Shown in pieces: positions 699 through 5,878 of a DNA stretch of 18,470 nucleotides. The stretch lies in UHGV virus genome UHGV-1652597; one strand, 5' to 3'. How positions within the stretch are numbered: the stretch's first letter is position 1; each line of letters starts with the position of its first letter. Under the pieces are notes generated by a model. It was given only the letters and a program-made list of their open reading frames with translations, was not told the DNA's origin and searched no databases. Origin of the DNA: a virus. Both the position numbers and the translations under genes were made by a program.

Positions 699-2345
699 GT
701 GATGCAGGCCTGCCAGCGCCATCTTGATGACCTGATGGCGGAAAAAAGTAAGTCGTTTCGTTACCGCTTCGACAAGGACCTGGCTGAACGGGCCGCCAAA
801 TTTATTCAGCTGTTGCCGCACACCAAGGGTGAGTGGGCATTCAAGAGGATGCCCATCACGCTGGAGCCGTGGCAGCTCTTTGTGATCTGCTGCGCGTTTG
901 GCTGGGTCAATAAAGGCTCCCGGCTGCGCCGCTTCCGTGAGGTGTATACCGAAATCCCCCGTAAGAACGGCAAATCGGCAATCTCTGCCGGTGTCGCCCT
1001 GTATTGTTTTGCCTGTGATAACGAGTTTGGCGCGGAAGTGTATTCCGGTGCCACGACAGAGAAACAGGCGTGGGAAGTCTTTCGCCCGGCGCGACTGATG
1101 TGTAAACGCACACCCATGCTGACGGAAGCGTTCGGGATTGAGGTTAACGCCTCAAACATGAACCGTCCGGAGGATGGCGCGCGGTTTGAACCGCTGATCG
1201 GTAACCCCGGTGATGGATCATCACCCCACTGTGCGGTGGTGGATGAATATCACGAGCACGCCACCGATGCGCTTTACACCACGATGCTTACCGGGATGGG
1301 GGCGCGACGTCAGCCACTGATGTGGGCCATTACTACTGCCGGGTACAACATTGAGGGGCCGTGCTACGACAAGCGGCGGGAAGTCATCGAGATGCTCAAC
1401 GGCTCGGTGCCCAACGATGAACTGTTCGGGATCATCTATACCGTTGATGAAGGTGACGACTGGACCGACCCGCAGGTGCTGGAAAAAGCCAATCCAAATA
1501 TTGGCGTGTCGGTTTATCGCGAATTTTTGTTAAGTCAGCAGCAGCGTGCGAAAAATAACGCCCGTCTGGCAAACGTCTTTAAAACAAAACACCTCAATAT
1601 CTGGGTGTCGGCGCGTTCGGCGTATTTCAACCTGGTGAGCTGGCAGAGCTGCGAGGATAAATCACTGACCCTTGAGCAGTTTGAGGGGCAGCCGTGCATT
1701 CTGGCCTTTGACCTGGCGCGTAAGCTGGATATGAACAGTATGGCGCGACTTTATACCCGCGAGATTGACGGTAAAACGCATTACTACAGTGTGGCTCCGC
1801 GCTTCTGGGTACCGTATGACACGGTGTACAGCGTCGAGAAAAATGAAGATCGCCGGACAGCCGAGCGCTTTCAGAAATGGGTGGAAATGGGCGTTCTGAC
1901 CGTTACCGATGGTGCGGAGGTGGATTATCGCTACATCCTCGAGGAGGCCAAAGCGGCGAACAAAATCAGCCCGGTCAGTGAGTCACCCATCGACCCCTTC
2001 GGGGCGACCGGGCTGTCGCATGACCTTGCGGATGAAGACCTGAACCCCATCACCATCATTCAGAACTACACCAACATGTCCGACCCGATGAAAGAGCTGG
2101 AAGCGGCAATTGAATCGGGGCGTTTTCATCATGACGGCAATCCCATCATGACCTGGTGTATCGGCAACGTGGTCGGCAAAACCATTCCGGGTAACGATGA
2201 TGTGGTGAAGCCCGTCAAGGAGCAGGCGGAAAACAAAATTGATGGTGCAGTTGCGCTGATTATGGCGGTTGGCAGAGCCATGCTGTACGAGAAAGAAGAC
2301 ACGCTGTCTGATCACATTGAGTCCTACGGGATCCGCTCGCTTTAA
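699..2345 (+). CDS. terL: Phage terminase large subunit (ATPase/nuclease)
   Basis: 548-aa ORF directly after terS; Walker A-like motif PRKNGKS near residue 90; acidic motifs (VVDEYHEH) consistent with terminase ATPase; size and position. Start is GTG 699 or ATG 702; an in-frame stop at 642-644 precludes a longer N-terminus. Confidence 0.9.
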
Positions 2346-2356
2346 CTGAGGTAATT

Positions 2357-2539
2357 ATGATCATGCTGATTCTCGCGCCTCTGGTGGGCGTGCTGGGTGC
2401 GCTTTTGCTGGCGTATGGTGCCTGGCTGATTTATCCCCCGGCGGGGTTTGTTGTTGCCGGGGCGCTGTGCCTGTTCTGGTCGTGGCTGGTGGCGCGATAT
2501 CTCGACCGTACACAGCCGTCTGTCGGCGGAGGTAAATAG
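2357..2539 (+). CDS. Small hypothetical membrane protein (two predicted transmembrane helices)
   Basis: 60-aa ORF with two hydrophobic stretches ([23 protein letters not shown] and [16 protein letters not shown]); GAGG at 2348-2351 is 5 nt upstream of ATG 2357; stop overlaps the portal GTG start. No family recognised. Confidence 0.5.
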
Positions 2540-3780
2540 TGTTCTTTTCGGGATTATTTCAACGAAAAAGTGACGCACCGGTGACCACGCCAGCAGAGCT
2601 GGCGGATGCTATCGGGCTGTCATATGACACCTATACCGGAAAGCAGATCAGCAGCCAGCGGGCCATGCGACTGACGGCGGTTTTTTCCTGCGTCAGGGTG
2701 CTGGCGGAGTCGGTCGGGATGTTGCCCTGCAACCTGTATCACCTGAACGGCAGCCTGAAACAGAGAGCCACCGGCGAACGTCTGCATAAGCTGATCTCCA
2801 CGCATCCCAATGGCTATATGACGCCGCAGGAGTTCTGGGAGCTGGTGGTCACCTGTCTGTGCCTGCGGGGAAACTTTTACGCCTACAAAGTGAAAGCATT
2901 TGGCGAAGTGGCTGAACTGCTGCCCGTCGACCCAGGTTGTGTGGTACCGAAGCTTAACAGTAGCTGGGAACCGGTTTACCAGGTCACATTCCCGGACGGC
3001 TCCACGGATGTACTGAGCCAGGAAGATATCTGGCATGTGCGCACGCTGACGCTGGACGGTCTGGTGGGACTGAATCCCATCGCCTATGCCCGCGAGGCAA
3101 TATCGCTGGCAGCTGCGACCGAAGAGCACGGGGCCAGACTGTTCAGCAATGGTGCGGTGACGTCCGGTGTGTTGCGTACAGAGCAGACGCTGTCGGATCA
3201 GGCTTATGAGCGTCTGAAGAAAGATTTTGAGGAGCGTCACACCGGGCTTGGTAATGCTCACCGCCCGATGATCCTTGAGATGGGGCTGGACTGGAAGTCG
3301 ATGGCGCTGAACGCCGAGGACAGCCAGTTCCTGGAAACCCGCAAGTTTCAGCTTGAAGAAATCTGTCGTCTGTTCCGTGTGCCATTGCACATGGTGCAGA
3401 ACACCGATCGCGCCACCTTCAACAATATCGAAGAACTGGGGCTGGGATTTATCAACTATTCACTGGTGCCGTATCTGACCCGCATTGAGCAGCGGATCAA
3501 CACCGGACTGGTACGAAAAAGTAAGCAGGGCGTTTATTACGCCAAATTTAACGCCGGGGCGTTACTGCGCGGGGATATGAAGTCCCGTTTTGAAGCCTAC
3601 GCCACCGGGATTAACTGGGGAATTTACTCTCCCAATGACTGCCGCGACCTGGAAGATATGAATCCGCGTCCCGGTGGGGATGTCTATCTCACACCGATGA
3701 ACATGACCACGAAACCCTCCGATGGCAGTAAAGCCGGTAAGCAGAAGGATAACGCCAATGCAGACGAAACAACGTCTTGA
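2539..3780 (+). CDS. Phage portal protein, HK97 family
   Basis: 413 aa; N-terminal region RLTAVFSCVRVLAESVGMLPCNLY resembles the conserved HK97-family portal N-terminus; located between terminase and prohead protease. GTG start at 2539 overlaps the preceding stop. Confidence 0.9.
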   Translation: MFFSGLFQRKSDAPVTTPAELADAIGLSYDTYTGKQISSQRAMRLTAVFSCVRVLAESVGMLPCNLYHLNGSLKQRATGERLHKLISTHPNGYMTPQEFWELVVTCLCLRGNFYAYKVKAFGEVAELLPVDPGCVVPKLNSSWEPVYQVTFPDGSTDVLSQEDIWHVRTLTLDGLVGLNPIAYAREAISLAAATEEHGARLFSNGAVTSGVLRTEQTLSDQAYERLKKDFEERHTGLGNAHRPMILEMGLDWKSMALNAEDSQFLETRKFQLEEICRLFRVPLHMVQNTDRATFNNIEELGLGFINYSLVPYLTRIEQRINTGLVRKSKQGVYYAKFNAGALLRGDMKSRFEAYATGINWGIYSPNDCRDLEDMNPRPGGDVYLTPMNMTTKPSDGSKAGKQKDNANADETTS

Positions 3781-4408
3781 TGTACCGCTGAGTCTGAAAT
3801 CTGTCAGTGACTCCGGTGAGTTTGAAGGGTATGGCTCCGTCTTTGGTGTAAAGGACAGCCACGATGATGTGGTGATGTCCGGGGCATTTGCTGCTTCCCT
3901 GCGGGCGTGGAGTGACAGAAAAGCGTTACCTGCGCTGCTCTGGCAGCACCGCATGGATGAACCCATCGGTGTTTACACCGAAATGAAGGAAGACGATGTC
4001 GGGCTTTACGTCAGGGGGCGGTTGCTCATTGATGATGATCCCCTCGCAAAACGCGCACATGCACACATGAAGGCCGGTTCGTTAACCGGCCTTTCTATTG
4101 GGTACGTCCTGAAAGACTGGGAATACGACCGGAGCAAAGAAGCCTTTCTGTTGAAAGAAATCGACCTCTGGGAAGTCAGTCTGGTGACGTTTCCGTCTAA
4201 CGACGAGGCGCGGATCAGCGACGTCAAGAACGCGCTGGCCCGCGGGGAAATCCCCGAACAGAAAAAAATCGAAAGAGTCCTGCGTGATGTCGGACTCTCC
4301 CGTACCCAGGCCAAAGCATTCATGGCCGGGGGCTATGGCGCACTGTCCCTGCGCGACGCTGAGTATGTGGGCTCTGCACTGAATGCACTGAAAAATCTGA
4401 ACTTCTAA
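3758..4408 (+). CDS. Prohead maturation protease, HK97 family
   Basis: Motif FEGYGSVFGVKDSHDDVVMSGAF matches the HK97-family prohead protease N-terminal signature. The track ORF starts at 3722, but ATG 3758 has an AAGGA Shine-Dalgarno about 8 nt upstream and is preferred. Overlaps the portal 3' end. Confidence 0.85.
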   Translation: MQTKQRLDVPLSLKSVSDSGEFEGYGSVFGVKDSHDDVVMSGAFAASLRAWSDRKALPALLWQHRMDEPIGVYTEMKEDDVGLYVRGRLLIDDDPLAKRAHAHMKAGSLTGLSIGYVLKDWEYDRSKEAFLLKEIDLWEVSLVTFPSNDEARISDVKNALARGEIPEQKKIERVLRDVGLSRTQAKAFMAGGYGALSLRDAEYVGSALNALKNLNF

Positions 4409-4422
4409 TCAGGAGAAATACG

Positions 4423-5628
4423 ATGGCGGTTGATATTAAAGATGTCGAACAGGTCGCGCAGGAGCTGCAGCAGAAGTTTGACGACTTCAAAGCAAAGAAC
4501 GACAAGCGCGTGGATGCGATTGAGCAGGAAAAAGGCAAGCTTGCCGGGCAGGTGGAAACCCTGAACGGGAAACTCAGCGAGCTGGAAAATCTCAAAAGCG
4601 ACCTTGAAAAAGAGCTGCTTGAGCTGAAACGTCCGGCAGGTGGAGCGCAAAATAAACTGGCCACCGAGCATAAAGAGGCGTTTGTGGGCTTTCTACGTAA
4701 AGGCCGTGAAGACGGTCTGCGCGATCTGGAGCGTAAGGCATTGCAGGTGGGTACCGATGAAGACGGTGGCTACGCCGTGCCGGAAGAACTGGATCGCAAC
4801 ATTCTTAACCTGCTGAAAGATGAAGTGGTGATGCGTCAGGAAGCCACGGTGATCACCGTTGGCGGTTCCGACTACAAAAAACTGGTGAATCTGGGCGGTA
4901 CGGCTTCCGGATGGGTGGGGGAAACGGATACGCGATCCCAGACTGCCACCTCCAGACTGGAGCTGATTGAACCTCTCATGGGGGAAATCTACGGCAACCC
5001 GCAGGCTACCCAGAAAATGCTGGACGATGCCTTCTTCAACGTGGAGGCCTGGATTAACAGCGAGCTGGCAACCGAATTTGCCGAACAGGAAGAAATTGCC
5101 TTTACCTCAGGCGATGGCACCAAGAAGCCGAAAGGGTTCCTGGCGTATGAATCCACTGATGAAACCGACAAGGTCCGGGCGTTCGGCAAACTTCAGCATA
5201 TTGTATCCGGCGAAGCGACCGCGGTGACCGCAGACGCCATTATCAAACTGATTTACACGCTGCGTAAGGCACACCGCACTGGCGCGAAGTTCATGATGAA
5301 CAACAACAGCCTGTTTGCCATCCGTCTGCTGAAAGACACCGAGGGTAACTATCTGTGGCGTCCGGGGCTGGAACTGGGGCAGCCGTCCTCTCTGGCGGGT
5401 TACGGTATCGCTGAAAACGAACAGATGCCGGATATCGCCGCTGATGCGAAAGCCATTGCATTTGGTAACTTCAAACGGGGTTACACCATCGTTGACCGTA
5501 TCGGCACCCGCATTCTGCGTGACCCGTACACCAATAAACCGTTTGTCGGTTTTTATACCACCAAGCGCACCGGCGGGATGCTGGTCGATTCGCAGGCCAT
5601 CAAACTGCTGAAGATTGCAGCGGCGTAA
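4423..5628 (+). CDS. Major capsid protein, HK97 family, with N-terminal coiled-coil (delta/scaffolding-like) domain
   Basis: 401 aa; N-terminal about 100 residues are highly charged and heptad-like (EQVAQELQQKFDDFKAKNDKRVDAIEQEKGKLAGQVETLNGKLSELENLKSDLEKELLELK), followed by a body typical of HK97-fold capsid proteins; AGGAG Shine-Dalgarno before ATG; follows the protease. Confidence 0.9.
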   Translation: MAVDIKDVEQVAQELQQKFDDFKAKNDKRVDAIEQEKGKLAGQVETLNGKLSELENLKSDLEKELLELKRPAGGAQNKLATEHKEAFVGFLRKGREDGLRDLERKALQVGTDEDGGYAVPEELDRNILNLLKDEVVMRQEATVITVGGSDYKKLVNLGGTASGWVGETDTRSQTATSRLELIEPLMGEIYGNPQATQKMLDDAFFNVEAWINSELATEFAEQEEIAFTSGDGTKKPKGFLAYESTDETDKVRAFGKLQHIVSGEATAVTADAIIKLIYTLRKAHRTGAKFMMNNNSLFAIRLLKDTEGNYLWRPGLELGQPSSLAGYGIAENEQMPDIAADAKAIAFGNFKRGYTIVDRIGTRILRDPYTNKPFVGFYTTKRTGGMLVDSQAIKLLKIAAA

Positions 5629-5677: not shown

Positions 5678-5878
5678 ATGATCCTGAAACAAGATCTGAA
5701 ATGGTCACCGGACGGTATGCGTGTTGAGGTCATTCGGGCCGGTGAGTATGACGACGGGGCGCTTCCTGCCCGGGTGCAGGAGATTGCACTTCAGGCCGGG
5801 TTAGCAGAGCGCGGAACCAGTGCAAAAAGCAGTAAAGCGGCAAAAGAGAAAAAAGCCACGACCAGTAAAGAGGGCTGA
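5678..5878 (+). CDS. Hypothetical small protein with Lys/Ser/Thr-rich C-terminal tail
   Basis: 66-aa ORF between the capsid and head-tail connector genes, same strand and tightly packed; no family recognised. Confidence 0.4.
   Translation: MILKQDLKWSPDGMRVEVIRAGEYDDGALPARVQEIALQAGLAERGTSAKSSKAAKEKKATTSKEG

Follow-up and report, generated by a model that had tools for sequence, protein, structure and literature searches.

Organization of the TerL-portal junction

The window, that is, the whole stretch of viral DNA that was analyzed (UHGV virus genome UHGV-1652597; 18,470 nucleotides), opens with a canonical HK97-type head module. TerS (158-661; Terminase_4) is followed by the large terminase subunit TerL (699-2345, plus strand; PF20441, E=4.7e-34; PF03354, E=3.1e-26), an open reading frame (ORF) of 60 codons, the HK97-family portal (2539-3780, plus strand; PF04860, E=4.4e-108), the S78 prohead protease (3722-4408), and the major capsid protein (4423-5628). 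The identity of the window is 95-98% to ST64B, SfI, SfII, SfIV, and related E. coli phages, and 86% to P27. This head module is matched at 95-99% identity by three further records: a 1,764-bp sequence named "Enterococcus phage Efm 3-10" (OR844959.1, H18), a "Bacillota bacterium" MAG contig (JAEWTL010000102.1, L086), and an Edwardsiella hoshinae contig (NZ_BAUC01000041.1, L088). These matches are probably due to contamination or mis-binning, or to very recent transfer in the case of Edwardsiella.

The small gene between TerL and the portal (2357-2539, plus strand) encodes a protein of 60 amino acids that belongs to PHROG 502. Its limits, an ATG at 2357 and a TAG at 2537-2539, are taken from the ORF list, and its status as a gene is backed by dN/dS. 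Direct reading of the sequence gives a gap of 11 nt between the stop of TerL (TAA, 2343-2345) and the small ORF, with a Shine-Dalgarno GAGG (2348-2351, plus strand) 5 nt before the ATG. At the opposite end, the pentanucleotide TAGTG (2537-2541, plus strand) joins the stop of the small ORF to the GTG start of the portal (2539-2541), and base 2539 is common to both codons. The Shine-Dalgarno sequence of the portal, GGAGG (2528-2532, plus strand), is embedded in the small ORF. An earlier note on this DNA had described a 60-aa ORF between the two genes, a reasonable Shine-Dalgarno sequence, and a stop overlapping the portal start, and all three are present as described.

The TAGTG junction is consistent with translational coupling of the small ORF and the portal, as judged from the sequence. 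A one-base stop/start overlap (TGATG, TAATG, or TAGTG) was found in 40 of 43 distinct junctions of the family. Enterobacterial members of the family end in an invariant Gly-Gly (G58, G59) because the portal GGAGG is embedded there, and the constraint on these two residues acts at the DNA level. On the minus strand, a 78-aa ORF rich in Arg, Gln, and Pro (2342-2578) spans the whole small gene. No sign was found that it is a gene, and it most likely arises as a shadow of the hydrophobic, GC-rich frame on the coding strand. A second small ORF of 66 aa with a Lys/Ala/Glu-rich tail lies between the major capsid and head-tail connector genes (5678-5878, plus strand), and a 62-aa hypothetical protein is annotated at the matching place in phi467 (L002, 6326-6514).

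The small gene is already catalogued, and for some twenty years its product has been listed as a hypothetical membrane protein. GenBank names it "putative integral membrane protein" (P27 L37, SfII_03), Sb3 (ST64B), or "hypothetical protein", and in SfIV (KC814930) it is unannotated. Four records (ON470584.1, ON470603.1, ON470580.1, and PQ793804.1) call it "head-tail joining protein W". This label appears to be a mis-annotation by map position, as the protein is a predicted membrane hairpin that has no gpW match. Residues 1-55 match positions 3-57 of the 58-position profile of PHROG 502 (E=1.7e-28), and a distant tandem-duplicated member of the family also matches this profile; the PHROG is named "membrane protein" and is filed under "moron, auxiliary metabolic gene and host takeover". 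No match was found in Pfam, NCBIfam, PDB sequences, or PADLOC for the small protein or 44 diverse relatives (45 members), and the PADLOC defence models matched none of the three proteins scanned, namely those of the window, of SfV, and of a Reyranella locus. Searches of the literature found nothing on the gene and no virion-proteome report of its product. As far as was found, the size of the family, its cross-phylum motif, its tie to the portal, and its repeated loss are undescribed in the literature searched, Pfam, and NCBIfam. In S. Typhimurium UK-1, the ST64B "portal gene STMUK_2003" was predicted to be trafficked to the cell surface, and a dam mutant shows de-repression of the ST64B region as a whole (PMC4213855). 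The surface prediction may stem from the small membrane ORF, or from a start that was mis-called at the junction.

Predicted membrane hairpin and selection on its sequence

Kyte-Doolittle hydropathy peaks over residues ~3-24 and ~31-46 of the 60-aa protein, and an AF2 model built with 26 homologues contains helices at residues 2-25 and 27-52 (pLDDT ~74). The agreement between the two supports the two hydrophobic helices proposed in the earlier note. Predicted transmembrane (TM) helix 1 (residues ~2-24; 2360-2428, plus strand) is placed by hydropathy, column conservation, and the first AF2 helix, and contains the conserved residues Gly11, Gly14, and Gly21. It is followed by the IYPPAG turn (residues 25-30; 2429-2446, plus strand) and by predicted TM helix 2 (residues ~31-46; 2447-2494, plus strand), which is placed by hydropathy and AF2 and in which Gly35 is invariant in the family. 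The last 14 amino acids (2495-2536, plus strand) form a variable, basic C-terminal tail that is predicted to be cytoplasmic and contains Lys or Arg in 131 of 138 family members.

Across 138 family representatives, the N-terminal extension contains a mean of 1.6 Lys and Arg residues and the C-tail 2.4, as against 0.11 in the six-residue loop. A loop nearly without Lys and Arg between tails rich in them points, by the positive-inside rule, to an N-in/C-in orientation. The protein is accordingly modelled here as a helical hairpin in the inner membrane, its two termini cytoplasmic and its IYPPAG turn predicted on the trans side. The family signature (residues 20-35, 16 aa; 2414-2461, plus strand) is located at the turn between the helices and, according to the codon table and column frequencies, is near-invariant across phyla, with the core motif YGAW(L/M)IYPPAGF(I/V)xGG. 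In the family profile, the glycines matching Gly14, Gly21, Gly30, and Gly35 are 90-100% conserved and Trp23 is 85% conserved (column frequencies). The tails are the least conserved parts of the protein, and the C-tail is poorly conserved in alignment A1.

The window protein scores 82.8 bits against the family HMM. An exhaustive profile search recovered at least 382 representatives at 50% identity, nearly all of 45-90 aa. At 90% identity, a word-indexed search recovered at least 1,802 clusters, whose names go no further than hypothetical, prophage, or membrane protein. With tblastn of the small protein against isolated phages, only close relatives were reached, since the low-complexity filter masks helix 1. 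Among the matches listed, no fusion to the portal or to another domain was found, only tandem self-duplications. These are rare four-helix members of ~102-122 aa (P0152, P0167, P0174, and P0214), and the tandem duplication suggests that the hairpin unit acts as a dimer or higher oligomer. Foldseek searches against PDB and BFVD returned only non-significant helical hairpins.

The predicted architecture raises the question of a role in lysis. Class II holins have two TM helices, an N-in/C-in orientation, glycine-rich helices, and a short basic C-tail, and pinholins such as S21 of phage 21 resemble the small protein in these predicted features and in length (~60-70 aa). A class II holin, pinholin, or antiholin-like hairpin would modulate membrane integrity or lysis timing, and one structural neighbor is labelled holin, at a non-significant E=6.3. 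However, no holin family in Pfam, NCBIfam, or PHROGs matches the protein, and its gene sits between TerL and the portal, outside any lysis cassette and not beside an endolysin. SfII has a complete cassette of class I holin, lysin, and spanin elsewhere (37.5-38.8 kb), and the lysis genes of the phi467 and Marinobacter loci lie upstream of terS. The holin-like role raised in the earlier note is thus very unlikely.

The small ORF is, to judge from substitution patterns, a genuine protein-coding gene under purifying selection. Divergent enterobacterial pairs (55-65% identical) give a dN/dS of 0.07-0.25 over codons 1-50, and pS in the same pairs is 0.5-0.68, so that synonymous differences are near saturation. 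The 16-residue core is invariant from E. coli to Reyranella, Shinella, Rhodoferax, and Ruminococcaceae, and its third codon positions use all synonymous codons (codon table). Fixed residues with free third positions indicate selection on the peptide and not on an RNA or DNA element, and an element of this kind in place of a protein was rejected on the same ground. A terminator-like hairpin at 2433-2447 was likewise set aside as a by-product of the PPAGFVV codons inside the ORF. The "terminator" annotated in SfII also lies within the small ORF.

Many database variants of the small protein (P0128, P0133, P0141, P0156, P0170, and P0179) are frameshifted just 3' of the PPAG motif, at C5/G4 homopolymer runs (window 2435-2446, CCCCCGGCGGGG). 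One Shigella flexneri copy (L095, 4001-4179) is 1 nt short, and some frameshifted versions enter a +1 frame ORF (2448-2573). These frameshifts may be sequencing errors or may mark a mutational hot spot.

The same codon evidence bears on the idea that the small gene is mainly an expression-tuning upstream ORF, which would relay ribosomes from TerL to the portal and so set portal dosage or bring late mRNA to the membrane, with the peptide itself being secondary. Such a function would account for the near-universal overlap with the portal start and for the portal Shine-Dalgarno sequence inside the small ORF, and phages without the small ORF couple the portal directly to TerL. That direct coupling also shows that the small ORF can be dispensed with for this purpose. 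No significant RNA structure was found that would occlude the portal start (z = -0.75), and strong conservation of residues across phyla over free synonymous sites means that the peptide sequence matters. Tuning of portal expression as the main function is therefore distinctly unlikely.

Linkage to the portal gene and patchy distribution

A profile-derived scan with one genome per species yielded 33 loci, and in 31 of them a family member lies directly upstream of a PF04860-type portal. These 31 loci span Enterobacterales, Alpha- and Betaproteobacteria, Lysobacterales, and Ruminococcaceae. Outside the enterobacteria, the portals are 29-39% and TerL ~21-37% identical to those of the window. Among isolated phages that do not belong to the ST64B group, the same layout is present in Azospirillum phage Cd (gp30), Klebsiella phage ST101-KPC2phi6.3, and Marinobacter phage AS1 (gene 3, AS1_3). 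A Marinobacter prophage has a portal-adjacent member though its protease is S49 and not S78.

The small gene diverges together with the portal. Across 42 loci left after dereplication, the distance between small ORFs is correlated with that between portals (Spearman 0.65; partial 0.55 given TerL), and its partial rank correlation with TerL distance given the portal is weak (0.15). Pairs with a distant TerL and a similar portal have a small-ORF distance of 0.27, as against 0.74 for pairs with a similar TerL and a distant portal. In phi467 and vB_EcoM-606R7, TerL is unrelated, the small ORF and portal are as in the window, and nucleotide homology begins at ~2328, just 5' of the ORF. SfV shows the reverse arrangement: its TerL has ~90% nucleotide identity to that of the window, homology stops at ~2265, and the portal is different.

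SfV was at first sight a case of the same TerL without the small ORF, and this was rejected. Between its TerL and portal lies an unannotated 53-aa two-helix ORF (L003, U82619.2, 2289-2450) whose ATG overlaps the TerL stop and whose end overlaps a better portal GTG. It scores 21 bits against the family profile and is a divergent member. The annotated portal start of SfV (GTG 2392) probably lies too far 5'. Translation from GTG 2440, which is preceded by a Shine-Dalgarno sequence, yields an N-terminus (MLLDALFRSK) that resembles other portals.

Insertions at the junction follow the same pattern. Two Reyranella prophages carry opposite-strand cargo between TerL and the small ORF, namely Usp and a Fic/DOC protein with an HTH domain (L113, 1815-3868, minus strand) and an alpha/beta hydrolase (L112, 2818-3618, minus strand). 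This cargo represents textbook moron-type insertion. In both loci the small ORF still overlaps the portal start, and the insertions fall on the TerL side, never between the small ORF and the portal. Two E. coli prophage remnants (L085 and L087; CP178306.1 and CP178308.1) retain an intact small ORF between a 5'-truncated TerL (residues 171-548) and a portal cut after 139 residues. The genomic comparisons indicate that the small gene is inherited with the portal and not with TerL.

The gene is nevertheless absent from many related head modules. A portal-seeded scan, for which a four-sequence portal alignment was used because one spanning SfV, HK97, and Ruminococcaceae was too diverse, gave 76 viral contigs with enough upstream sequence, and 47 of them carry the small ORF. 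Carriers number 22/50, 13/33, and 7/18 when the portals are dereplicated at 90%, 70%, and 50% identity, respectively. All portals at least 70% identical to that of the window have the small ORF. About 40% of the dereplicated portal clusters of the clade therefore carry the gene, and about 60%, HK97 included, do not. The earlier statement that HK97-like modules normally run from TerL into the portal holds for HK97 itself, in which TerL runs straight into the portal, but not for this sizeable fraction. Thirty non-carriers were examined (28 dereplicated contigs of the portal-seeded scan, L160, and HK97). TerL and the portal are immediate neighbors in most of these, and none has another small hydrophobic ORF at the junction.

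In a neighbor-joining tree of portals, carriers occur on almost all deep branches, with non-carriers interspersed. This distribution is most simply explained by an ancient association of the small gene and the portal with repeated loss. Where the gene is present, it is always of the same family, in the same place, and co-diverging with the portal, and ancient presence with repeated losses fits better than repeated insertion. The choice between conserved and sporadic thus has a mixed answer: the family is conserved beside the portal in 31 of 33 loci and is missing from about 60% of portal clusters. Its absence from HK97 and many related head modules indicates that the gene is dispensable for portal function as such. 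No feature of the portal N-termini separates carriers from non-carriers.

Three exceptions to portal adjacency were found. A single-unit member (L111, 534-749) and the one tandem member examined (P0174; L202, 1500-1808, and L203) still belong to a head module, separated from a downstream S78 prohead protease by one or two genes that could not be recognised, and neither a portal nor TerL was identified nearby. These loci could belong to another kind of capsid-encoding element, such as a satellite, or contain a divergent portal. The third exception, L115, is a degraded prophage.

These data bear directly on the proposal of the earlier note that the gene is a candidate moron inserted here. Lambdoid morons bring a promoter and terminator with them, frequently stand out in composition, and turn up sporadically as insertions in single lineages; an example is the inner-membrane superinfection-exclusion protein HK97 gp15. 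A moron product or host-directed membrane peptide would act on the envelope, by superinfection exclusion or in a toxin-like manner, from a permissive site between TerL and the portal. Like lambdoid morons, the small gene encodes an inner-membrane protein within a late structural operon, and it is dispensable and patchy across the portal tree. The filing of PHROG 502 in the moron and host-takeover category, the orientation of the most conserved segment toward the membrane or periplasm instead of the cytoplasm, and the tolerance of the TerL-portal junction to insertions in other phages also favor this view.

In contrast to such morons, the small gene has no promoter of its own before 2357 by a consensus scan, a simple method by which weak signals could be missed. 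The scan also found no terminator after 2539, the only terminator-like hairpin being the one inside the ORF. Its GC content of 0.589 (2341-2520) does not differ from the 0.53-0.60 of flanking windows. It is packed tightly against both neighbors, with its stop overlapping the portal start, and a single homologous family, co-diverging with the portal, is found in exactly this place across phyla. Real morons (Usp, Fic, and the alpha/beta hydrolase) insert upstream of it, and PADLOC gives no match. Receptor-specific exclusion is also at odds with a motif common to phages of Gram-negative and Gram-positive hosts. The lack of its own promoter and terminator, the flank-like GC, the tight packing, and the single family at a fixed position leave the moron reading unsupported, and a function of this type is unlikely. 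The two-helix membrane protein of the earlier note thus stands, and its assignment as a moron does not. The small gene is very probably an integral, portal-linked late gene.

Possible roles and comparison with known systems

When two genes stay adjacent across genomes and are coupled in translation, this strongly predicts that their products are physical or functional partners. The small protein thus probably acts together with the portal. By analogy with known assembly systems, it may, as the favored but tentative proposal, be a membrane-anchored accessory factor for formation of the portal ring or initiation of the prohead. The gene is probably co-transcribed with TerL and the portal as a late gene of the head-morphogenesis operon, and the hairpin would be translated in step with the portal. 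It would then insert into the cytoplasmic membrane, as other short hairpins do using YidC or Sec, and hairpins would self-associate via their conserved glycine-rich helices. The variable cytoplasmic tails would provide a membrane-bound assembly site or chaperone for the portal ring and thereby for the initiation of the prohead. On this proposal the protein would improve assembly without being essential to it.

Some observations count against an assembly factor. Chief among them, the most conserved part of the protein is membrane-embedded on the far side, and the cytoplasmic tails, by which it could touch the portal, are the least conserved. A conserved far-side motif is explained no less well by self-assembly or by a conserved target in the membrane than by portal binding. 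Related portals without the small gene (about 60% of clusters) and with unchanged N-termini show that portals do not need it. The two elements (L111 and L202/L203) in which a family member is found close to an S78 protease, but no portal could be recognised beside it, also count against the proposal. HK97-type prohead assembly is not known to be membrane-associated. A wider form of the proposal, in which the family is a widespread, unrecognised class of portal-assembly factors whose hairpin nucleates or chaperones the portal ring at the cytoplasmic membrane, is doubtful.

Linkage to the portal could also be explained if the hydrophobic peptide were a virion or ejection component, packaged with the portal and aiding DNA in crossing the inner membrane of the next host. 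Hydrophobic ejection proteins are carried by other phages. The small protein, however, lacks any signal by which it could be extracted from the membrane, is missing from many close relatives with the same portal type, and appears in no virion-proteome report in the literature searched, so that a role in ejection is extremely improbable.

The accessory-factor proposal concerns a step that is poorly understood in HK97-like phages, namely how the portal ring forms and is placed at one capsid vertex, and the small protein offers a genetically testable handle on it. If its wider form is true, the proheads of many HK97-type phages of Proteobacteria and Firmicutes begin to assemble at the membrane, in the manner of T4 with gp40 and YidC. 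The results also affect annotation: "head-tail joining protein W" labels appear to be wrong, some records, among them SfIV and SfV, lack the small gene, and the SfV portal start is probably misplaced.

Among known systems, the closest are P27 L37, ST64B Sb3, SfII_03, Cd gp30, and AS1_3 (PHROG 502), which are the same gene with the same size and TerL-portal position and differ in nothing; their records give only "membrane protein" or "hypothetical protein", without a function. Lambda gpW, the head-tail joining protein encoded between terminase A and portal B, has a similar length and the same map position. In contrast to gpW, which is soluble, the small protein is a predicted hydrophobic two-helix membrane hairpin and has no match to the gpW family.

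For the proposed role, the relevant system is T4, whose portal gp20 is assembled at the inner membrane together with the viral chaperone gp40 and is in contact with YidC (PMC9958956). No homology of the small protein to gp40 was found in PHROGs, Pfam, or the other libraries scanned. The likeness lies in the proposed role only, that of a phage-encoded, membrane-associated, non-structural helper of portal ring formation and prohead initiation (PMC9958956). The role of gp40 was established experimentally, whereas that of the small protein, whose family lies strictly beside the portal gene, is inferred from genomic linkage.
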